Positions 50,151 to 60,956 are shown, numbered from the stretch's first letter. The stretch: DNA of 64,000 nucleotides from Thermoplasmata archaeon (GCA_022749895.1 JAKIWS010000004.1:6195-70194), one strand, 5' to 3'. A program made the numbers and translations. The notes: generated by a model not told the origin, from the sequence alone.

Positions 50151-51140
50151 CTACGTCAGCGCACGACGCCAGAGCGGCGTGTGCCACGCCCGGTGGACCT
50201 CGGGCGCGCCGGTGGGCGGGAACACGACCCGGACGGCGGCCGCCCGACCGAACGCCATGTACTCCAACGAGTACCACGTCGCGGTCCACCCCCGGGCCGG
50301 GTCCTGCGCCGCCTCGCCGAAGTGGTACGTCTCCTCGAAGAAGCCGCTCGCCTTCCGGGCGATCGGGTACGACCGCTCCAGCGCTTCGGTCGCGTTCGTG
50401 GGGGCCGGAGCGCCGGGGGCGGCGTCGACCGGCACGTCGACCTCGAGGGGACCGACGAGGAGGCCGCGTCCGACCGCGTACTTGGCGAACGTCGTGCGGA
50501 ACCGTCCCAGCTCCTTGCGCTCGGCGAGAAGGATCCAGGTGAGCGGGTTCGACGTCGGCACCGGAACCGTGAACCGGCCGTCGCGTCGAATCCATCGGCC
50601 GATGTAGAGCCGGGCCCCGAGGCGCACGGTGAAATAAAGCCCGAAGAACGCCATCAGGCCGTAGACGGTCCACAGGTAGACCGGGAACGGCACGTGGTTC
50701 CGCTCGACGCCGAGCAGGAGCCAGAACGAGAACACCGACACGACGAGCGTGAGCAGGTTGATCGCCCGGTCCGCATCGAGCTCCAGCTTCCGCTCCGAGA
50801 ACGGAAGGAACGGCGGGACGGAGAAATGGGTGAAACCGTCCTGGAGCATGTGCGCGAGCCCGGCCGCCTCCATCACGGCGAAGAAGATCAGCGGGTTCCC
50901 GGGCGCGAGCCGCGGCGCGATCAGGAGCCCGCCCACCGACGCGACGATCGTGACGCCGAGGATCGAGTGGGTGATCCCGTGGTGGCGGAGGATCGGGAAC
51001 CGCTTCGCGAGCGGCCAGAAGATGATGTCGCCGTCCGGGAGGCCGCCCGCGAGCGCGCCCGCCGCCAGATACGACGGCTGGAACCCGACGAGGCCGAAGC
51101 TGACGAGGTACGCCACGAGGACGTGGGTGAAGAGGTCCAT
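50151..51140 (-). CDS. Membrane-bound metal-dependent hydrolase, YdjM/DUF457 family, with an extra C-terminal soluble domain
   Basis: MDLFTHVLVAYLV...HHGITHS...DGFTH His-rich motifs and several TMs. Confidence 0.7.
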   Translation of the reverse strand: MDLFTHVLVAYLVSFGLVGFQPSYLAAGALAGGLPDGDIIFWPLAKRFPILRHHGITHSILGVTIVASVGGLLIAPRLAPGNPLIFFAVMEAAGLAHMLQDGFTHFSVPPFLPFSERKLELDADRAINLLTLVVSVFSFWLLLGVERNHVPFPVYLWTVYGLMAFFGLYFTVRLGARLYIGRWIRRDGRFTVPVPTSNPLTWILLAERKELGRFRTTFAKYAVGRGLLVGPLEVDVPVDAAPGAPAPTNATEALERSYPIARKASGFFEETYHFGEAAQDPARGWTATWYSLEYMAFGRAAAVRVVFPPTGAPEVHRAWHTPLWRRALT

Positions 51141-51164
51141 CGACGGGGGCGCGACGAGGGGGGC

Positions 51165-51431
51165 CTAGATCAGGCCCTCCTCCATCACCTCAACGGATTC
51201 GACATGGGGCACTTTCGCGAGCGCGTGCTCGGTCGCGTCGAGGACGCCGCTGACGTCCGCCATCACCACGCTCAGCAACAGCGACTTGAGCCCGTAGGCG
51301 ATATCCTTGACCTGCATCCCCCGGAGCGTCACGCCGGCGGGAAGGCTCGCCCGGGCGGCTTCCCCCAGCGCCTTCATGTCGGTCTCGACACCCTGCGGCA
51401 TCAGCCGGAACAGCACGGCGACCTGCCCCAT
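51165..51431 (-). CDS. Archaeal translation elongation factor 1-beta (aEF-1beta)
   Basis: 88 aa, MGQVAVLFRLMPQGVETDMKAL...IAYGLKSLLLSVVMAD...VESVEV aligns by eye with known aEF-1beta. Confidence 0.9.
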   Translation of the reverse strand: MGQVAVLFRLMPQGVETDMKALGEAARASLPAGVTLRGMQVKDIAYGLKSLLLSVVMADVSGVLDATEHALAKVPHVESVEVMEEGLI

Positions 51432-51441
51432 CGTAGGCTCC

Positions 51442-51612
51442 CTACGGGCCTTCGAAGCCGCACTTCGGGCAGAGATAGGCGACGCTCTGGTCGCGGCACC
51501 GGCGGCACCGGCCGATCGTCGTGCCGGCGCAGTCCGGGCAGAGGAAATGGGTCGAGCCGTGGCCCGCGAGCGCGAGTCCGCACGACGAACAACTGGTCTC
51601 GGTGAATGCCAT
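51442..51612 (-). CDS. Zn-ribbon protein (56 aa) that typically precedes aEF-1beta in archaea
   Basis: CSSCG...CPDC...CRRC...CPKCG (four CxxC pairs). Only the C-terminal 56 aa of ORF 51442..52446 are used. Confidence 0.7.
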   Translation of the reverse strand: MAFTETSCSSCGLALAGHGSTHFLCPDCAGTTIGRCRRCRDQSVAYLCPKCGFEGP

Positions 51613-51641
51613 GGGGGCGTGCCTCTCCGACCGGAACCTCG

Positions 51642-52475
51642 TTAGGTGCGGGGCCGGCCGCGGCGGCGCGCGCCCACCCGGGAGGTCCATATAACAATCG
51701 CCCCGATGAAGGCGGCGAATCCGGCGACATAGTACGCGGTGTAGTTCGGTGCGGGCCCGGCGATGTAGAACGCGTGGCTGATCGACTCCGCGCCCCCGGC
51801 GAAACTGACGAGCCCGTGCTCGAGGCCCAGCGCGACGGCGAGCGTGTGCCACCCCGGAGCGAGGGCGGGGGGCACGAACGAGAAGCTGATCGGGTACGAG
51901 GCCCCGGCGGCGAGCCCCGGGACGGCGACCGTGCCGACGGGACTCCCGTCGAGCGTGACCGTGAGACCGAACGGCGAGACGCCCCCCGCCCCCGAGACGA
52001 CGAGCGTCCCCGAGAGCCGGAGCGGCGCCACGATCGTCAGCGCGAGCGTGAGGTTCGTCGACTCGTTCTTCGTGCCCAGCGTCGAAGTGACGACCACAGA
52101 GATCGTCGCGGATTCGGTGATGTTCGGCGCGGTGAACCCGAGCGTGATCGTGCCGTTCACGAGCACGCCCGACGGCGGCGCCAAAACCGAGCTCGTCGTG
52201 TTGGTCGCGATGAAGTACGCGTGGTACGACAACACCCCGCTCTGCGTGCCGTTCGCGGCGAAGGCCGGTCCGCCGGTCGCCGTCACGACGTACTTCGCCT
52301 TGAGCCCTTGGCCGAGGGTCGTTGGGCCGGTGATCGCTCCGGTGAGGGGCGTCGTCGAGCTGGCCGCGGCGGCGGGATGCGCGGCGACAAGGGCCAGCAC
52401 CGGAAGGAGCAGCAGGGCGAGAACGGCGAGCGCCGCCCCCCGCCACTTCCGGGCTCGATCGACGCCCAACGTCAC
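51642..52475 (-). CDS. Exported, sequon-dense protein with a C-terminal TM anchor, immediately downstream of aglB
   Basis: GTG 52475 lies 2 nt after the aglB TAG. Signal peptide WRGAALAVLALLLLPVLALVAA. 7 N-x-S/T sequons in 277 aa (NGT, NTT, NGT, NIT, NES, NLT, NYT). C-terminal TM + RRRGRPRT. Confidence 0.55.
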   Translation of the reverse strand: MTLGVDRARKWRGAALAVLALLLLPVLALVAAHPAAAASSTTPLTGAITGPTTLGQGLKAKYVVTATGGPAFAANGTQSGVLSYHAYFIATNTTSSVLAPPSGVLVNGTITLGFTAPNITESATISVVVTSTLGTKNESTNLTLALTIVAPLRLSGTLVVSGAGGVSPFGLTVTLDGSPVGTVAVPGLAAGASYPISFSFVPPALAPGWHTLAVALGLEHGLVSFAGGAESISHAFYIAGPAPNYTAYYVAGFAAFIGAIVIWTSRVGARRRGRPRT

Positions 52476-52477
52476 GC

Positions 52478-55400
52478 CTACGCCCTCCGCCAGCGGCGGG
52501 TGCGGAGCCACCGGTACGTCCCCGCGGCGACCAGGAACCCGGTCGCCGGCACGAAGGCGAGGACGGGGACGAGCCAATCCGGGTAGGCCGGGGGCGAGCC
52601 CAACGACGGGCCCGTCACGACGAGCGACGTCGAGTTGAGGTTCACGGTGAGCGCCGGGACGTTGAGGGTGACGGAGCCGCCGACCGAGGAGCTGGTGTTG
52701 AGGATCAGCGCGAGCACGGTCACGGAGCCCGGCGGCAGGGCGTGTCCGCTCGGCGCGGCGAGGTGCACGGAGAACGACGAGTTCGTCCCCGTGGGAAGCG
52801 ACGAGGCCACGAGGAGGGGCGCGTTCCCGACGTACACCCGGGCCGACCAGCCGAGGCCGGTCAGCCGCGCGGCGTCGAGCACCGTCAAGGACACGGAGAT
52901 CGGAACGTTCCCTTTGTTCGCGAGGTAGAACGGCACGATGGCGCTCGTCGGCGCGATCGTGGGCGGGGTCGCCGGGGGCGCGCCGATCGCGAAGGCGTAC
53001 CGGGGGGTGACGGAGATCGACGGGGCGGGCGTGATCGTTCCGGCGAGGCTACCGTCCGGGAGGAGCGCCTCGATCGCCGCCGTCGGGTGCGCGACGTCCG
53101 TGTTCGGCGGGACGACGATCGTCACGACGAGCCCCGCGGTCGCATTCGCCGTCGCGACCCCCAACGTCACGTTGGAGGGGGAGAACGAGAAGTTCCAGAA
53201 GCTGGGGCTCCCGAGGAAGTGGAGGGTGAGGGGGATGTTGCCGGTGTTCCGCAACGTGGCGGCGAAGCTGGCGACCCCGCCGTTCCCGAGGACCACGCTC
53301 GTGGGCGAGCCCAAGGTGAACGCGACGCTCCGATGCCAGACGACCGCGAGGTCGAGCTCGGTCGCGGCGTTCCCGGCGAGCAGCGGCACCGCCGCCGTGG
53401 CGTTCGCCGTCGTCGCGACGCCGTACGGGCTCACGATCGTCGCCGCCGTGACCTTCCAGACGCCGAGCGGGAGGACGACCGGTATCCGCGTTCCGATGGG
53501 GGAATCCGGGAACTGGAGCGTCACACCGCCGGGTCCGCTGAACGTCAGGTTGGCGGAGGGGGGCGAGGTGCCCGCCGGCGGGAGGATCGTGACGGTGTCG
53601 GTCCAGGTCGCGCCGAGACGGAGCAGCAGCGCCGGGCCCGGCGTAGCGGGTACGGCGTACGACGAGGCGTTCGCGAGCTCGAGCCCCCCGCCGTTCGTCC
53701 AAGCGTAGATCGAGTACACTCCCGGGGTGAGGAGCGCGGAGAACGAGCCGTTCGCGGCCGCGACGGTCGTGACGGGACCATGGGCTCCGGGGCCCTGGAA
53801 CCGCACCGTTCCCGGCACCTGCGCCGGGAAGCCGGCCACCGCGAGCGACCCGTCGACCGGGGTGAGCACGGTCGTTCCGACGAGGGTCACGACGCAGAAC
53901 GAGGTGGCGCCGGTGACGTGGCACGTCGTTCCGGGCCTCACGGAGAGTGCTTCGTACGCCCCCGAAGATCCGTTCGGAACGAACTGCACGGTCTGCGCGG
54001 TCGGGACGAACGTCGTGTTCACGGGGAGCACGATGAGCCCGCGTCCCGCGTTCGCGGTCGCGCTGACGACGAGACCCCCCGGACCGGTGAGGTTGAGCGG
54101 GACCGTGGCGTTGACCGCGACCCCGGTGGGCAACGTCAGATTCACTTCGAGCAACGCGCCACGACCGGTCGCGACGAGCGGGTGCGCGAGCACGCCGGTC
54201 GCGTTGAACGTGACGGTGGCGACGGTTGCGAAGGTCGCGTTGGCGACCGACGCGGTCGCATACGCGGTGTAGGTGCCCGGTGCGGCGAAGAACTTCCCCT
54301 GGAACGTCGTCCCCGAGACGACCGTGGTGAAGGCGGGCGAGGTGAGTCGGATCGTCACCGCTCCGGTCGTGACGCCGTTCGGGAGCACGAGGCTCCCGTG
54401 GCTCGTCACCTGGCGCACGACCGTGAGGGTGATGTTCGTCTGCTGGGAGCCGACGGGGATCGTGACGTTCGTGACGACGCGCGGCAGGTAGAGGCCGCCG
54501 CCGGTCGTCGCGGGGGCGTAGGCGGTCAAGCGGTAGGTCCCCGGAGCGAGGGTGAGGTTGTACGCGTCACCCCCCGTCGCGTTCGTGGAGTGCCCGGTCG
54601 ACGAGAGCGCGGTCAGGTTGAGGTGAAGCCGGGCGCCGGCCGGGAGCCCCACGACCCGCACGTTCACCGGGACCGACTGCAGCGAGAGGGGGACGGTTCC
54701 GATCGAGCCGATGGAGTTCGCGGCGATGCCGCAGAGATGGTACGGGGCGTATCCGAACGCGGTCGCGTTGAGGCAGTACGAGGCCCCCGCGGGAACGGTA
54801 CCGGGGACGACCAGCGTGACGTTCCCGCTCGCGTTGCTGAGCGCGGTCACGGTCGCGCCCATCGGCTCGAGTGCGATCGAGACCGACGCCGAGAGCGCGG
54901 GGGCGAGCGGACCGACGCCGCCGAACGTGGGGGAGCCCACGAGGAGGTGGACCCCAGCGCCGGGCACGAGCGTCAACGCGAGGGACGTGGTGTACCTCAG
55001 GTCGATGCGCTGGAGCGCGGCGGAGATGCCGGCCGACCCGCCGATCGCCCCTTGGGTCGCGAGCAGCGAGTACCGTCCGGCGGGCAGCGGAAGCGACCAG
55101 TGGCCGCTCGCGTTCGAGAACGTCGAGACCTGGTCTCCCCGCGCGTCGTAGGCGGTGATGACGGCGGACGACGTGAGCGAGGTGATCGGTCCGCTGGGAA
55201 GGGCGACGGAGCCGCCGAGCGGGACGGCGGGCGCGACCGCCAGCGGAGCGAGCGCGACGACCGGCCCGGCGCTCCCGACGTACGCGCTCGCGAAGCCGGC
55301 GTACCACGTCGAGCCCAGGAGCCCGTAGCCGTACAGCGAGTAGTTGCCCGCCGGCAGGACCGCGGTGATGAAGCCGCTCCCGTCGGAGAGGAAGACGGAC

Positions 55401-58400
55401 GAGTTCGCCGTGGCGAGCGTCGGCGTGTTGCGGGTCGTGGGGCTGCTCCCGCCCGTCCCTCCGGGACCTCCGGGCCCGGGGCTCGGGGCCGTCGTCGTCA
55501 CCTGCGGGGGAGGCAGGATCGGCTGGAACCGGACCGGGAACGCGGGCACGGGGTTCCCGTTCGCCAGGACGGTCAACGTCAGCGTCTCGGTCGGCACGAG
55601 CGTCAAGTTGAGCTTCGTGTGCGTTCCGGTCGTGCCGATCGCGAGAGCGACCGCGCCGGAACCGAGCCCCTGGACCGCGTACGTGGCGCTGATCGAGTAG
55701 TTGCCGGCCGCGAGGTTCTTGATCGTGTAGTTGCCGGTCGTCCCGGTGACCGTCGTCGCGACGACCCCGGTCGAACCCCGCACGGTGACGACCGCCCCGG
55801 GGATCCCGAACCCGGTCGTCATTCGCACGGTTCCGAGGACCGTCCCCGGCGCGAGCGCGACCTTGGTGTTGTTCGCGATGTCCGAGGGGACGGTCTCCTG
55901 CGGCTGGGTGAAGTTGCGTCCGCCGTAGACGATCGAGAGGTTGTACACGCCCGGCGGCACGTTCGTGAAGTGGAACGAGCCGCTCGCGTCCGTCGTCCGG
56001 GTCTGCGTGGGGAAGCCTTGCGCCCACAGGACGGCCGACGCTCCGGCGACGAGCGCATCGGCCCCGGGCTGGTACGATGAGTTGTTCGCGGTGTTCCAGT
56101 AGACGAATCCCTGCACTTTGTTCGCGCCGAGGACGATCGGGCGGACCATCGCGGGGGTGTCGAGCGAGAACCCCGAGGCGCCGCTCACAGCGAAGTGGAG
56201 CGACGCGAGGTGGTCAGTGCCGGCCTGGCTCGGGCCATCGAGGCGCCCGGCGGTGACGTTGACGGTGTCGTTGCCGGGAGGGAGGAGGAGATTGTACGCG
56301 CCGTTGGCGCTCGTGACGACGGTCATGTGGGGGATGTGGAACGAATCGTAGACGGTGAGCCGCACGTTGCCGACCGGGGTGCCGTCCGGTAGCGTCACCT
56401 GCCCGGTCATTGGTTGCCCGGCGTAGTAGGCGAGCATCGTCTCGCCGCCCGAGAAGTAGTGGTTCGCGTCGGTGAACGCGGTCCCGTTGGTCGCCTTCGC
56501 GCGGGCGACCGCCTCCGGGACGTTCGCGGGATACGGGCAGTTCGGGTTGGTCGTCGTGCTCGGCGTGGGGCAGTAGTACGCCGTCTTGTAGACGACCTCG
56601 AAATGCTGCAGCATCCAGCCGGGCTGGACCGGGTACTGGGCGGCGGCCCCCTCGAGACCGGGGATCCCGCCGCCGACCCCGATCTGGGTGCCGTTGTAGC
56701 CGACGAAGATCTTGAAGATCATCGTGTTGTAGAACGCCGGGAGGCGGTTGATGTTGTACTGGACCGCGGCGACGCCCGCGGGGACGCTCCCGAGCGGGTA
56801 CGTGTTGCCGTTGCTCCCGAGCACGCTGACCGTGTAGTACGAGGTCGGGGCGCCGCCGGCGCCGATGACCCGGTCGGTCAGGTCGGCGGGCGCGTAGAAG
56901 ATCCCGGTGTTGGAGCCGCTGAACGGGAAGAGCCGGCTATCGACCATCGCGTAGCGGATCGACCAGTGCGTGAACGCCTGGACGTCGTTGTAGACCTGCG
57001 CGACGCCGCCCGCGGGGAGCGTCGTCGCGAGGAACCACGCCATCGTGTCGTAGAGCGCGTTCGCCCCGTCGAGGTGCGCCGGGTCGACCGGGAGGTACCG
57101 CTCGGGATGCGCCAGGACGAGCTGCATGTCCTGGGAGGTGTTCGTCATCAGCGAGTGCAGCGTGGCCAGATTGACGCCGTCGGCCGCGAGCAGCGCGTTG
57201 AGCGCCGGCGGCAGGTACGGTTGGCCGGTCGTCGTCGCTTCGGCGGTCAACAGCGTCGTCGCGAGGATCGCGATCGCCTGCGACTCGTTCTGGGAGAGCA
57301 GGAAGTTCCCCGCCGGCACGATGCCGTTCTGGAAGTTGTCGGCAACCGTCGGATGCTTCCCTTCCGCGACGGCCTGGAAACCGTAGTCCCACCAGCTCAC
57401 GAACGCCGGGCGTTGCGGCTGGGGAAGGTTCGTATCCTGCGTCGCTAACCAATCGTAGCCGTTCTCGTCGTACTGCGTGGGGGTGTCGAGCTGCGTCCCC
57501 GCCGCCCCGAGGTAGAAGCTGGAGGCGTTGGACGGGGACGTCCGGAGCGGCGGCGGCAGGGTGTCGAAGATCTGCCGGTTGTACTGGCTCTTGACGTTGT
57601 ACGGGACCCCGGCATCGATCGCGTACCAGATGTTCGGCAGCAGGATCCCGACGAGGACGACCATCACGAGGAGGTGCCGGAGCTTGAAGGCCCGGCGGAA
57701 CGCGCCGAACTGGCTGCGGCGGTCGGCGAGCGAGGCGACGGTCCGGCGGAGCTGCGGATAGTTCGCGACCTGCAGCGCCTGCACGATCGCTTCCGCAGAG
57801 AGGAGCGAGAACGCCGCGCTCCCGAGGAAGAAGAACTTCGCGGCCGAGACCGGGAGGTAGATGCTGATCACCGCGAAGACGCTGAACAGCATCAGCACGC
57901 GGGCGAACTTACCCCGGATGAGCCGGACCAGGACGAGGATCAGGCCGACGAACGCGAGGAAGAACGTGATCACGCCGTAGCCGAGGATGAGGGCGTCGAT
58001 CGAGGGGGCCTGCGCTTCGGCGACGGTCGAGTAGACGAGCGTCTTGACGAAGTAGCCTTGCCCCGTGACGATGTCGACGAAGAACGCGTGGTTCACGACG
58101 TCGAGGAGGCCGATCCCCGCGGCCGCGATCACGCCGAGGATCGGGAGCGAGAAGACGTACGGAAGGTCCCGCAGGAGGAGGAACGGAAGGAGGATGGCGA
58201 GGGCGCCGAAGAACACCAGGAGCGGGAGGTTGAACCAGCCCGCGAACAGCCCCTGCGGGAGGTAGTACGGCACGGCCATCGGGAAGCCGACGAGCCCGAC
58301 GATCCACGTGACGACGTAGAGCCCGAACGAGTCGACCCGGCGGATCCGCTCGACGATCATCGCGAAGGCGAGGAAGACGACGATGGCGGCGACGGCGAAC

Positions 58401-59125
58401 GAGTACCCTTGCCAGGCCAGGGCCAGGGCGCCGAGGCTCACGCCGGTCAGGACGGCCCACTTGACGGCGTTCCGCTCCACCCGGGCGAACGACCTGAGGC
58501 CGGCCAGGATCTGGCGCGGGTGGCGGTAGCTCTCGACCCAGCGACGGGTCCCCGCGGCCCGTACCGTCCGCAGATAGCAGTAGACCGTGAGGAGAATGAA
58601 GAACACGTAGAACGAGAGGTAGTTCGCGTAGCCGAAGACCGACGAATCGATGTTGGCGACCATCAGCGGGTAGAGGAACGCCGCGACGATGCCCATCCGG
58701 CGCGAGCTCACTTCTTTCCCGATGAGGTAGACCGGGACCACGCCGAGCGCCGACCAGAGGGGCGCCTGGAAGTCGAGGAAGAACGACCCCGCCTTGACGG
58801 CGTTCCCGCCGAAGAACGGGGCGAACAGAATCCCCAGGACCGCGTTCATCCAGTCGAACAGCGGCTCCCGCGGGTTGACCGCGCCCGTGGGGTATCGGAG
58901 CAGCGGGTCGCGGACGAGGTTCGTGTGGTTGTTGACGATGTACTCCATCACGTGGCTGTGGTAGAACGAATCCGAGCCGCCGCCGTAGAGGTAGAGCGGT
59001 CCGAACTGGTGGAGCAGCGCCCAGCTGAACACCGTGCGGATGAACAGCCCGAGGCCGAACGCCGTCGTGAGCAGGACGATCGTCCAGCCGTGACGATGCC
59101 AGAACCCCCCGTCGGTCGACGCCAT
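52478..59125 (-). CDS. aglB: Archaeal oligosaccharyltransferase AglB (STT3 family) with a ~1,300-aa beta-sandwich-repeat extension and a C-terminal TM anchor (2,215 aa)
   Basis: About 13 N-terminal TMs, GGGSDSFYHSH (EL1 acidic motif), TVAE (EL5 TIxE-like), and WWDYG at aa 578-582 (nt 57380..57394). These are followed by many CarboxypepD_reg-like repeats (e.g. GQVTLPDGTPVGNVRLTVYD, TDASGSFHFTNVPPGVYNL) and a terminal VPVLAFVPATGFLVAAGTYRWLRTRRWRRA. Confidence 0.9.
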   Translation of the reverse strand: MASTDGGFWHRHGWTIVLLTTAFGLGLFIRTVFSWALLHQFGPLYLYGGGSDSFYHSHVMEYIVNNHTNLVRDPLLRYPTGAVNPREPLFDWMNAVLGILFAPFFGGNAVKAGSFFLDFQAPLWSALGVVPVYLIGKEVSSRRMGIVAAFLYPLMVANIDSSVFGYANYLSFYVFFILLTVYCYLRTVRAAGTRRWVESYRHPRQILAGLRSFARVERNAVKWAVLTGVSLGALALAWQGYSFAVAAIVVFLAFAMIVERIRRVDSFGLYVVTWIVGLVGFPMAVPYYLPQGLFAGWFNLPLLVFFGALAILLPFLLLRDLPYVFSLPILGVIAAAGIGLLDVVNHAFFVDIVTGQGYFVKTLVYSTVAEAQAPSIDALILGYGVITFFLAFVGLILVLVRLIRGKFARVLMLFSVFAVISIYLPVSAAKFFFLGSAAFSLLSAEAIVQALQVANYPQLRRTVASLADRRSQFGAFRRAFKLRHLLVMVVLVGILLPNIWYAIDAGVPYNVKSQYNRQIFDTLPPPLRTSPSNASSFYLGAAGTQLDTPTQYDENGYDWLATQDTNLPQPQRPAFVSWWDYGFQAVAEGKHPTVADNFQNGIVPAGNFLLSQNESQAIAILATTLLTAEATTTGQPYLPPALNALLAADGVNLATLHSLMTNTSQDMQLVLAHPERYLPVDPAHLDGANALYDTMAWFLATTLPAGGVAQVYNDVQAFTHWSIRYAMVDSRLFPFSGSNTGIFYAPADLTDRVIGAGGAPTSYYTVSVLGSNGNTYPLGSVPAGVAAVQYNINRLPAFYNTMIFKIFVGYNGTQIGVGGGIPGLEGAAAQYPVQPGWMLQHFEVVYKTAYYCPTPSTTTNPNCPYPANVPEAVARAKATNGTAFTDANHYFSGGETMLAYYAGQPMTGQVTLPDGTPVGNVRLTVYDSFHIPHMTVVTSANGAYNLLLPPGNDTVNVTAGRLDGPSQAGTDHLASLHFAVSGASGFSLDTPAMVRPIVLGANKVQGFVYWNTANNSSYQPGADALVAGASAVLWAQGFPTQTRTTDASGSFHFTNVPPGVYNLSIVYGGRNFTQPQETVPSDIANNTKVALAPGTVLGTVRMTTGFGIPGAVVTVRGSTGVVATTVTGTTGNYTIKNLAAGNYSISATYAVQGLGSGAVALAIGTTGTHTKLNLTLVPTETLTLTVLANGNPVPAFPVRFQPILPPPQVTTTAPSPGPGGPGGTGGSSPTTRNTPTLATANSSVFLSDGSGFITAVLPAGNYSLYGYGLLGSTWYAGFASAYVGSAGPVVALAPLAVAPAVPLGGSVALPSGPITSLTSSAVITAYDARGDQVSTFSNASGHWSLPLPAGRYSLLATQGAIGGSAGISAALQRIDLRYTTSLALTLVPGAGVHLLVGSPTFGGVGPLAPALSASVSIALEPMGATVTALSNASGNVTLVVPGTVPAGASYCLNATAFGYAPYHLCGIAANSIGSIGTVPLSLQSVPVNVRVVGLPAGARLHLNLTALSSTGHSTNATGGDAYNLTLAPGTYRLTAYAPATTGGGLYLPRVVTNVTIPVGSQQTNITLTVVRQVTSHGSLVLPNGVTTGAVTIRLTSPAFTTVVSGTTFQGKFFAAPGTYTAYATASVANATFATVATVTFNATGVLAHPLVATGRGALLEVNLTLPTGVAVNATVPLNLTGPGGLVVSATANAGRGLIVLPVNTTFVPTAQTVQFVPNGSSGAYEALSVRPGTTCHVTGATSFCVVTLVGTTVLTPVDGSLAVAGFPAQVPGTVRFQGPGAHGPVTTVAAANGSFSALLTPGVYSIYAWTNGGGLELANASSYAVPATPGPALLLRLGATWTDTVTILPPAGTSPPSANLTFSGPGGVTLQFPDSPIGTRIPVVLPLGVWKVTAATIVSPYGVATTANATAAVPLLAGNAATELDLAVVWHRSVAFTLGSPTSVVLGNGGVASFAATLRNTGNIPLTLHFLGSPSFWNFSFSPSNVTLGVATANATAGLVVTIVVPPNTDVAHPTAAIEALLPDGSLAGTITPAPSISVTPRYAFAIGAPPATPPTIAPTSAIVPFYLANKGNVPISVSLTVLDAARLTGLGWSARVYVGNAPLLVASSLPTGTNSSFSVHLAAPSGHALPPGSVTVLALILNTSSSVGGSVTLNVPALTVNLNSTSLVVTGPSLGSPPAYPDWLVPVLAFVPATGFLVAAGTYRWLRTRRWRRA

Positions 59126-59176
59126 GCTTCAAGGCCCGGTCAAGGCCGACCGGCGGGCCGCGCGAGACGGGGAGCC

Positions 59177-59186
59177 CTATTTATAG
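59177..59186 (-). promoter_or_regulatory. TATA-box-like element (CTATAAATAG on the minus strand) about 55 nt upstream of the aglB ATG
   Basis: The only AT-rich decamer in the 94-nt gap between DUF35 and aglB. Confidence 0.4.
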
Positions 59187-59219
59187 ACTGGGCAATCGAA
59201 CAATAGGGCCTACCGCGCG

Positions 59220-59771
59220 TTACGGCTCGACACGGAATCGGTAGAAGAATCGACCGTCGTCGTGCTCGAACGGTTCGAACCGAACGGGGTCCCCGATCTT
59301 GCACGCATCCCAGCTGCGTCCGACGATACGGCCGAAGAGGCGGAGCGGGGCCCCGTCGAGGTCCACGAGCCCGACGACGAACGGGACGTCGGCCTCCATC
59401 CCGAGAGGAGCCCCCGCGAGCACGGCGCTGAAAGCGTAGATCCGTCCCTTTGTCGGCAGCTCGACCCACTCGAGCGTCTCCGTGTGGCACTTGGGGCAGG
59501 CGACCCGCGGGGGCCAGTGGAGCTGGTGGTCGTTCGGGCACCGGGTCGTCCGGAACTTCCCCCGACGCAAGGCGTCGTAGAAGGCCGAGAGCCGGGTCTG
59601 GTCGGGTGTCTCGAGGGGAAAGAAATCGAGCAGGAACGGAAGCTTCGGAGCACGCACGGGCTTGGCCGGCGCCGGCTCGACGTTCGCCACGGCTGTGGGC
59701 GGCGCTTCCGGGACCACGCTGGGCGTCAGCAGCTGGGGTATCGTCCGTCGTCGGGCGCGGGTGGCGGCCAC
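59220..59771 (-). CDS. DUF35 OB-fold/Zn-ribbon protein (thiolase/HMG-CoA-synthase scaffold type)
   Basis: Rubredoxin-like CPNDH...CPKC, then an OB fold (KGRIYAFSAV...VVGLVDLDG...GDPVRF). The GTG start is 3 nt after the thiolase stop. Confidence 0.8.
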   Translation of the reverse strand: MAATRARRRTIPQLLTPSVVPEAPPTAVANVEPAPAKPVRAPKLPFLLDFFPLETPDQTRLSAFYDALRRGKFRTTRCPNDHQLHWPPRVACPKCHTETLEWVELPTKGRIYAFSAVLAGAPLGMEADVPFVVGLVDLDGAPLRLFGRIVGRSWDACKIGDPVRFEPFEHDDGRFFYRFRVEP

Positions 59772-59774
59772 CGA

Positions 59775-60956
59775 TCAGCCCCCCCGCTGGTAGACCATCA
59801 CCGAGTGGACGTTCGCGCTGCCGCTGAGATTGTGGACGAGGGCCCACGACGGGTCCGGCACCTGGCGCGCGGGAGCGACCGCCTGCGCGAACTGTTGGTA
59901 GACCTCGACCGCTTGCGCGACGCCGGTCGCGCCGAGCGGGTGCCCGCATCCGAGCAGCCCGCCGCGGGGGTTCACGACGATCTCGCCGCCGAGGTCCGAA
60001 CGTCCCTCTTCGGCGAACTTCCCGCCCTCCCCCTTGCCGCAGAACCCGAGCGCCTCGTACTCGACGATCTCGGAGATCGAAAAGCAGTCGTGGATCTCGG
60101 CGAAGTCGAGGTCGGACGGCTTGACCCCGGCCCGCCGCATCGCTTCCCGGCTCGCCAGGCGCAGGCCCCCCCAGTCGGTGAGCGACCCCGCGTTCGCGAG
60201 GTTGTGGAAATCGGAGTACTGCCCTGTCCCGCGGATCCATGCCGGGGTGTCGGTGAATTTCCGGGTCTTCTCCTCGGCGGCGAGGACCACCGCCGACGCG
60301 CCGTCGGTCATCGACGAGCAGTCGCCGAGCCGTAGCGGGGGTGCGACCAGGGGGAGCCGCGCCAGCTTCGCCCGGTCGAACGTCTTCTCGTGGAACTGCG
60401 CGGTGGGGTTCGAGTTCGCGAACCGGTGGTTCTTTTCGGAGACGGCGGCGAGCTGGGACTCGGTCGTCCCGTACTCCAGCATGTGCCGCTGGGCGACCAT
60501 CGCGAAGAACGGCGGCGCGGTCCCGCCGTGCACGCCATCCCAGGCGCGGTCGAGGACGCACCCCATCGCCGCGTTCGCTTCCGCCATCGACGGGAGGTTC
60601 ATCTTCTCGACGCCGACGGCGATCGCGACATCGCTCAATCCCGCGGCGATCGCGGCGTAGGCGCTCCGTATCGCGGATTGGCCCGAGGCGCACGCGAGCT
60701 CCGTGCGCTGGATGATCCGCGTCGGCCGGATGCCGAGGAGCTCGGCGGCCATCGGGGCCACGTGCGACTGGAAGGCGAACCGTTCCGGCTCCGCGGCGCC
60801 CACGAAGAGGGAGTCGACCGCGCCGGCGTCCAAGTTCGGGACGGCCCGGAACAGCGCGGCCCCCGCCTCTTGGCAGAGCTCGGACCACGTCGCGGCGCGA
60901 AGCCCGAACTTGGTGGTCGCGCCGCCGACGATCGCGACCTTGCGGAGCGCGGTCAT
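59775..60956 (-). CDS. Archaeal-type thiolase (acetyl-CoA C-acetyltransferase, SCP-x-like)
   Basis: VAIVGGATTKFG, active-site ELACASGQSA, and C-terminal NPRGGLLGCGHPLGATG. Confidence 0.9.
   Translation of the reverse strand: MTALRKVAIVGGATTKFGLRAATWSELCQEAGAALFRAVPNLDAGAVDSLFVGAAEPERFAFQSHVAPMAAELLGIRPTRIIQRTELACASGQSAIRSAYAAIAAGLSDVAIAVGVEKMNLPSMAEANAAMGCVLDRAWDGVHGGTAPPFFAMVAQRHMLEYGTTESQLAAVSEKNHRFANSNPTAQFHEKTFDRAKLARLPLVAPPLRLGDCSSMTDGASAVVLAAEEKTRKFTDTPAWIRGTGQYSDFHNLANAGSLTDWGGLRLASREAMRRAGVKPSDLDFAEIHDCFSISEIVEYEALGFCGKGEGGKFAEEGRSDLGGEIVVNPRGGLLGCGHPLGATGVAQAVEVYQQFAQAVAPARQVPDPSWALVHNLSGSANVHSVMVYQRGG

Follow-up and report, generated by a model that had tools for sequence, protein, structure and literature searches.

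A predicted giant, doubly anchored AglB with a sequon-rich beta-sandwich arm and a dedicated partner gene in the archaeal class Thermoplasmata

Overview

Here, we mainly focus on the aglB gene found in a 64,000-nucleotide (nt) stretch of DNA (the window) from a Lutacidiplasmatales-like Thermoplasmata archaeon whose genome is 83% complete. By sequence comparison, the first ~900 residues of its 2,215-amino-acid (aa) product are an AglB-type oligosaccharyltransferase (OST), which is followed by a long arm of beta-sandwich domains and a second, C-terminal membrane anchor. Among the members of a widespread, so far undescribed AglB variant the gene is unremarkable, and its giant size and layout are, judging from the gene models compared below, the normal form of AglB across the class. 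On balance we favour, with some confidence though well short of certainty, an account in which the protein is the sole active OST of its organism and in which the glycosylated, two-anchor arm, together with the product of an adjacent partner gene, plays a structural role in the cell envelope.

Characterised AglBs measure roughly 600-1,050 aa, are treated as single-subunit enzymes, and end in a soluble external domain; to our knowledge, none of them has a second anchor. Giant AglB proteins have been present in databases since 2000 with automatic OST annotation, and no paper describing a giant Thermoplasmata AglB was found in the literature.

Distribution of the giant form across Thermoplasmata

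In a word-indexed search, the best 120 of 401 matches were all 2,117-2,243 aa long, shared 47-85% identity with the query and covered 95-100% of it (almost all of them 99-100%), with "Thermoplasmata archaeon" given as the source where one was named. A pattern scan covering one genome per species showed that at least 580 genomes encode a relative, including that of Candidatus (Ca.) Lutacidiplasma silvani. When 301 genomes of the class, representing 88 genera, were searched with the Pfam STT3 model, 244 gave a match, most of them in one copy, and almost all frames not cut by a contig end fell at ~2,080-2,440 aa. Every one of the 22 near-complete genomes that were re-searched carries a frame of 1,896-2,413 aa, and a HMMER search with the first 940 residues recovered 279 representatives at E <= 1e-30, most of the non-fragment-like ones being 2,000-2,770 aa long.

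Exact look-ups gave 2,081 aa for Thermoplasma acidophilum (CAC12262.1/Q9HJ37), 2,076 aa for T. volcanium, 2,073 aa for Aciduliprofundum boonei (ADD08121.1), 2,061 aa for Ferroplasma acidiphilum, 2,057 aa for Picrophilus, 2,117 aa for Ca. Methanomassiliicoccus intestinalis, 1,943 aa for Methanomethylophilus alvi, and 1,912 aa for Ca. Methanoplasma termitum. An earlier note, made from the window's sequence, had presented the size of the protein as exceptional and had named in advance the common occurrence of such lengths in the clade as something that would lower the novelty; the same size and layout proved to be the norm class-wide.

Two side observations concern frame length. In the record of P. 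torridus DSM 9790, the gene is split into AAT43371.1 (1,637 aa) and AAT43370.1 (365 aa), while SMD30321.1, from another Picrophilus record, is intact at 2,057 aa; either the older genome carries a frameshift here or its sequence contains an error. In addition, five relatives (P0324, P0331, P0340, P0344 and P0349) are only 1,096-1,290 aa long, with an acidic composition, an intact DHD motif, two to four beta-sandwiches and no C-terminal anchor; such sequences may be contig-end fragments or a shorter sister form.

The STT3 core and its active-site motifs

A single open reading frame (ORF) carries the STT3 domain, the acidic residue of external loop 1, TVAE and WWDYG, all as read from the sequence beforehand, with WWDYG at the nucleotides given there (Table 1). 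Pfam STT3 (PF02516; CAZy family GT66) matches residues 51-432 at 34.2 bits, above the cut-off of 24.5 (44.9 bits in the whole-genome search), and a phmmer search of PDB sequences pairs residues 8-617 with residues 6-596 of Archaeoglobus fulgidus AglB-L (AfAglB; 3WAJ), while the WWDYG region aligns in the same type of search to the C-terminal domains of AglB-S1/S2 (3VGP and 3VU0). A weak AglB_core-like match in Pfam/NCBIfam covers residues 573-621. The archaeosortase A system-associated archaeo_STT3 model TIGR04154 gives 201.8 bits over residues 17-808, below its curated cut-off of 450 bits, and on this score the product is best described as a relative of that subfamily, not a member. It was the sole STT3 match in the source genome, and the 25 same-genus genomes having any match likewise had a single one each.

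In AfAglB, D47 and E360 act on the acceptor amide, whereas D161, H163 and R154 act on the metal (PMC7226087). The acceptor-side residues have invariant equivalents in the window protein (Table 1), and the second D-x-D/E/H metal motif (D161 and H163 in AfAglB; D154 and D156 in PglB) is replaced, with N168 and L170 at the aligned sites and S161 at the position of R154 in the alignment to 3WAJ; the earlier note had overlooked this altered metal site, as it had the partner gene described below. Across 270 long family members, this motif reads DHD or DWD in most lineages, DGRMH in Thermoplasmatales and ANYL in the source clade, where GYANYL is invariant even in two deep-branching variants. ANYL is always paired with NPREPLFDWM in external loop 1, except in two deep-branching sequences with NPRAP, and a further acidic residue, D160, lies near the altered site. 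We infer that the metal site has been rebuilt with E87 and/or D160. E87 as the sole compensating residue was considered and is weakened as a candidate, since the deep-branching P0209 and P0211 have NYL but carry Ala there. Near WWDYG, GIVPAGNFLL is the sequence that aligns with the AfAglB-S1 region; in this sequence alignment it fits neither the DK (DxxKxxxM/I) nor the MI (MxxIxxxI/V/W) consensus (PMC3703281).

The arm and the second membrane anchor

The extension described earlier as a sequon-studded series of carboxypeptidase-regulatory/Ig-like (immunoglobulin-like) modules is borne out by its Pfam matches, among which CarboxypepD_reg (PF13620) reaches 97.1 bits against a cut-off of 32.3 and occurs in four stretches; SdrD_B and SpaA match as well, EMC7- and NOMO-like matches are also seen, and the later domains are recognisable by fold alone. 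The count of ~13 domains, with approximate boundaries, was derived from the strand pattern of the structural model together with the first Pfam domain. An AlphaFold2 model of residues 1016-2215, built with 51 homologues, is all-beta in the arm, with a mean predicted local distance difference test score (pLDDT) of 82.3 and a predicted template-modelling score (pTM) of 0.50. The same model places a transmembrane (TM) helix, TM14, at residues 2185-2208, just where a C-terminal helix preceding RTRRWRRA had been proposed, and AglB is genuinely fused to a beta-sandwich array of ~1,250 aa that carries a second membrane anchor.

A TM helix followed by a basic tail closes the protein in all 17 full class-level orthologue ORFs that were fetched. 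According to the positive-inside rule, the basic tail is cytoplasmic, which makes the arm extracellular and tied to the membrane at both ends. Column identity in a 36-sequence alignment is 0.75 in the catalytic parts, 0.67-0.60 in the first two arm domains (D1-D2) and 0.46-0.53 in the middle of the arm, and reaches 0.62 in the juxtamembrane segment, 0.64 in TM14 and 0.88 in the tail; both membrane-proximal ends of the arm are therefore more constrained than its middle. Charged residues are very scarce in the arm (D+E 2.1%, K+R 3.0%).

Foldseek comparison of the arm with the PDB gave E values of 1e-6 to 1e-13 at TM-scores of ~0.1, that is, domain-type matches only, among them HYDIN-like ciliary proteins, alpha-2-macroglobulin/C5/CD109, Gram-positive pilins and Bacillus anthracis TIE. 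Thioester, isopeptide and sortase signals were not seen, no search aimed at them having been made. Taking arm and partner together, the searches returned generic Ig-type arrays (RbmA, titin, transglutaminase barrels, pilins and macroglobulins). None of the top arm matches, by sequence or by fold, was to a known S-layer protein, and the C-terminus PAYPDWLVPVLAFVPATGFLVAAGTYRWLRTRRWRRA, which contains no PGF, had no NCBIfam match to a PGF-CTERM/archaeosortase signal at E <= 0.01.

Sequons and predicted glycosylation

The protein contains 44 N-x-S/T sequons, of which 38 lie within residues 941-2170, nearly all of these in the arm itself, compared with 12.2 +/- 3.0 for this region in composition-preserving shuffles (maximum 22 in 2,000). 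Sixty per cent of the Asn residues of the arm are inside sequons, as opposed to 8% of those in the TM core, and many arm sequon positions are kept in 50-66 of 67 homologues. The enrichment is general in the source clade, with an arm sequon z score of at least 5.0 in all 123 distinct sequences (median 7.7), and reaches at least 3.8 in Thermoplasmatales, a group for which N-glycoproteins of T. acidophilum are documented in the literature. An excess of about three-fold, with many sites at conserved positions, is likewise found in most other lineages whose catalytic motifs are intact. In five orthologue species without the catalytic motifs, the arm sequon z score is only -0.6 to 1.6, near chance, and among the 25 class members compared, enrichment tracks catalytic competence.

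The enzyme of the GYANYL clade is argued to be active because its arm sequons stay strongly enriched. More generally, the sequon evidence for N-glycosylation of the arm wherever the enzyme is functional, and for a functional enzyme in the source clade, is good but not conclusive. The idea that the protein doubles as an S-layer-like glycoprotein survives in its second half: the three-fold sequon excess and the conserved sites give it the look of a glycoprotein, whereas fold searches returned only generic matches and nothing that points to an S-layer.

The partner gene

Immediately downstream of aglB, starting two nt past its stop codon, lies a 277-aa partner gene for a small type-I membrane protein, which is conserved throughout the class. 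The structural model of its product (pLDDT 90.9) consists of two Ig-like sandwiches between two helices, with generic fold matches. All six Asn residues of the ectodomain are in sequons, a proportion reached in 0 of 2,000 shuffles.

In 64 of 67 order-level loci the partner comes next after aglB, and in most of these its start overlaps the aglB stop. Homologues were also found after aglB in six distant genomes (T. acidophilum, where the partner has 257 aa, A. boonei, M. intestinalis, M. alvi and two from other families), with pairwise BLAST E values mostly of 1e-5 to 1e-27 and weaker ones for the M. intestinalis pairs. Moreover, in representatives of four lineages (P0268, P0290, P0298 and P0304; 2,495-2,702 aa), a partner homologue is fused to the AglB C-terminus; in P0268, the AglB anchor helix is followed by a short basic loop, a further hydrophobic helix and then the partner homologue. 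Gene neighbourhood and fusions argue that AglB and the partner belong together, physically or functionally.

Orthologues without the catalytic motifs

In M. intestinalis, M. alvi, M. termitum and relatives (L111-L114, L119 and L120; P0142, P0157 and P0172), the equivalents of D52, the TIxE motif and WWDYG have been lost. Across the five dead species, SGGSD has become SGGSS or SGGTG, no TIxE is present, and WWDYG has been replaced by TWIGN, TWFGN, TWIDY or VWNGY. A Pfam STT3 search found no further STT3 in several of the methanogen genomes with dead orthologues, and these methanogens may lack AglB-type N-glycosylation.

The arm, TM14 and the partner gene persist with these dead Methanomassiliicoccales-type orthologues, which argues for a role of the arm that is independent of catalysis. 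The suggestion that the protein acts as a surface scaffold stands to this extent: a non-catalytic role at the surface is plausible, given that dead orthologues keep the arm.

Gene context in the window

The coordinates of aglB, its parts and the adjacent features are collected in Table 1. The candidate TATA box TATAAATA sits in the 94-nt gap between a DUF35 gene and aglB and is likely to be the own promoter of aglB and the partner gene. The order thiolase, DUF35, aglB, partner, HVO_2753-type Zn-ribbon, aEF-1beta and YdjM (50151-60956) is kept in 50-64 of 67 relatives. Opposite aglB, a 1,112-aa ORF on the plus strand (52742..56080) is no gene but a shadow frame, as is to be expected in DNA of 70% GC.

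No match to PF00953 (the AglH/Alg7-type N-acetylglucosamine-1-phosphate transferase family) was found in the 83%-complete genome; this absence carries no information, since neither the Haloferax nor the Methanosarcina controls have a match. By analogy with Haloferax, glycan assembly in the source genome probably starts with an enzyme of the glycosyltransferase family 2 type.

Table 1. Positions of aglB, its predicted parts and associated features, counted from the first letter of the window
Feature	Position	Strand	Description	Basis
Partner gene	51642..52475	-	277 aa; N-terminal signal/anchor helix, two Ig-like domains, C-terminal TM helix, basic tail RRRGRPRT	CARDB match for the Ig-like domains
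aglB ORF	52478..59125	-	2,215 aa plus TAG stop; ATG start; uninterrupted	ORF listing and translation; full-length homologues
Juxtamembrane segment, TM14 and basic tail	52481..52660	-	TM14 at residues 2185-2208; tail RTRRWRRA	Helix in model
Arm	52661..56413	-	Residues 905-2155; ~13 beta-sandwich domains	Pfam, AlphaFold2, Foldseek, sequon statistics
Disordered insert	55409..55498	-	Residues 1210-1239, Pro/Gly/Thr-rich, inside domain 4; variable in homologues	pLDDT <50
External catalytic domain	56414..57610	-	Residues 506-904; contains WWDYG	phmmer to 3VGP/3VU0; weak AglB_core-like match
WWDYG	57380..57394	-	Residues 578-582; pocket for the sequon +2 Ser/Thr	Invariant in clade
STT3 membrane core	57611..59125	-	Residues 1-505; multi-pass	PF02516, 3WAJ alignment, hydropathy
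TVAE	58016..58027	-	Residues 367-370; TIxE-type, external loop 5; E370 = AfAglB E360	E370 invariant in clade
GYANYL	58616..58633	-	Residues 165-170; occupies the second metal-motif site (AfAglB GFNDHH, D161/H163); no acidic or His residue	
NPREPLFDW	58850..58876	-	Residues 84-92; external loop 1	E87 nearly clade-specific
D52 codon in GGSDSFYH	58970..58972	-	External loop 1; = AfAglB D47 / PglB D56	Invariant in 36/36
Candidate archaeal TATA box TATAAATA	59178..59185	-	~56 nt upstream of the aglB ATG	Read directly from sequence

Proposed function and alternative explanations

In the account that we favour, AglB would N-glycosylate surface proteins, including its own arm and the partner, and the enzyme of the source clade would do so with a rebuilt metal site in which S161, N168 and L170 stand where AfAglB has R154, D161 and H163, E87 has been gained and D160 is nearby. 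Arm and partner would be structural elements at the surface of mostly wall-less archaea (wall-less cells are reported for most Thermoplasmatales), serving as a glycosylated strut or canopy or as a scaffold for the catalytic site, and the two membrane-proximal ends of the arm would make specific contacts. A bolder version, which we put forward only tentatively, is that the Thermoplasmata AglB is no single-subunit OST of the kind taught for archaea and would be an obligate two-protein, doubly anchored envelope machine, whose fixed scaffold of 13-domain glycosylated arm, TM14 and co-translated partner is needed by the wall-less cells independently of glycosylation and whose metal site, in the source clade, operates without the second DxD motif; on that version, gut methanogens would keep the arm after catalytic loss because the scaffold itself is needed.

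Several points weigh against the favoured account. Foldseek against the PDB gave no function-specific fold match for arm or partner, and the profile comparison of partner and arm was not significant (probability 8%), for which reason the partner is not called an arm paralogue. Eleven of 74 motif-intact sequences of the D[HW]D type are without sequon enrichment, which also weakens a strict rule that sequons occur only where the enzyme is alive, and the catalytically dead lineages are few and related species. With the second DxD-type motif gone, activity could be lowered or altered, and a second STT3 might have escaped a search of an 83%-complete genome. In addition, no experimental datum was found for any giant AglB.

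Four other explanations have to be weighed. Arm and partner could be accessory parts of the OST, a prokaryotic counterpart of the eukaryotic luminal beta-sandwich subunits with a single TM helix; instead of forming envelope structure, they would hold or present nascent acceptors or couple AglB to the Sec translocon. The topology of the partner (signal peptide, two beta-sandwiches, C-terminal TM helix and short basic tail) fits this, translational coupling and gene fusions tie the partner to AglB, and the best-conserved parts of the arm are D1-D2 beside the catalytic domain and the membrane-proximal end. We nevertheless consider it unlikely, given that no OST subunit appears among the top 50 Foldseek matches of partner or arm, that thirteen domains go far beyond what a substrate clamp needs, and that the dead orthologues retain both arm and partner with nothing left to assist. 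Homology to the eukaryotic OST accessory subunits was considered separately and found unsupported, Foldseek against the PDB having returned generic Ig-type arrays. If, on the other hand, the arm were mainly a self-glycosylated shield against acid and proteases for the enzyme and the adjacent membrane, with no broader architectural part to play, the share of arm Asn in sequons, the few charged residues expected of an acid-exposed surface, and the way in which enrichment accompanies catalytic competence in the 25 class members would all follow; yet in the non-acidophilic gut Methanomassiliicoccales the arm is retained although its sequons are not in excess, and domain number, TM14 and tail are conserved more strictly than a shield needs, which makes such a purely protective role improbable.

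It is more improbable still that the source-clade protein is no longer an OST, or has changed its chemistry, and is kept for a structural role alone. GYANYL in every clade sequence, the accompanying loss of the R154 equivalent, and the precedent of the clearly dead Methanomassiliicoccales orthologues speak for it. Against it stand D52, E370 and WWDYG, which never vary within the clade but are lost in the dead lineages, the strong sequon enrichment in 123 of 123 clade sequences, as strong as in T. acidophilum, and the fact that this is the only STT3 found in the source genome. Finally, the earlier note had raised mis-assembly; in that case AglB and a separate surface protein would have been run together into one long ORF through an assembly error or a frameshift. 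The sole hint of this is the split P. torridus DSM 9790 record (1,637 + 365 aa), whereas an uninterrupted frame of the same length recurs in independent assemblies by the hundred, among them closed genomes from species in culture, and GC3 (the GC fraction at third codon positions) is 0.94 along the entire ORF. The chance of an artefact is negligible, and mis-assembly is excluded because frame length and continuity are conserved class-wide.

Significance

A whole archaeal class, including the long-studied T. acidophilum, carries an AglB of ~2,100 aa with a second anchor, a conserved arm and an accompanying partner gene. A structural arm would be a candidate for explaining the so far unexplained envelope organisation of wall-less archaea. 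Should the source-clade enzyme prove active, OST catalysis can do without the second DxD motif, and the dead orthologues would provide a natural separation of catalytic and structural functions.

Comparison with known systems

The closest structural reference is A. fulgidus AglB-L (3WAJ/3WAK/5GMY/7E9S), with which the window protein shares a multi-pass STT3 core followed by an external WWDYG domain, D52 and E370 corresponding to D47 and E360. The solved AfAglB chains comprise 875 aa, and the window protein is 2.5 times longer. It also differs in having N168, L170 and S161 for D161, H163 and R154, and in showing no recognisable DK or MI motif (IVPAGNFLL). Relative to characterised AglBs in general, it adds ~13 beta-sandwiches, TM14, a cytoplasmic basic tail and a dedicated partner gene.

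The giant AglBs of T. acidophilum and A. boonei share the core-arm-TM14-tail layout, the downstream partner gene and the sequon-rich arm, at 23-25% full-length identity to the window protein, and are annotated only automatically (glycosyltransferase family 39, carboxypeptidase regulatory-like, OST). The second motif distinguishes them, being DGRMH in Thermoplasmatales and ADWD in Aciduliprofundum, in contrast to GYANYL in the window protein.

Outside the AglB family, NOMO and EMC7 (PF23193, PF09430) share a transthyretin/CarboxypepD_reg-like chain, a single C-terminal TM helix and a short cytosolic tail. The corresponding Pfam matches in the arm are weak, at or below gathering cut-offs, with PF22904 appearing in precomputed match lists; unlike NOMO and EMC7, the array of the window protein is covalently joined to the enzyme, and there is no sign of common descent beyond the domain superfamily. 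The likeness to the Gram-positive pilins SpaC, PitA and BcpA, to the MG domains of alpha-2-macroglobulin and to B. anthracis TIE is one of domain type only, all of them being strings of beta-sandwiches.

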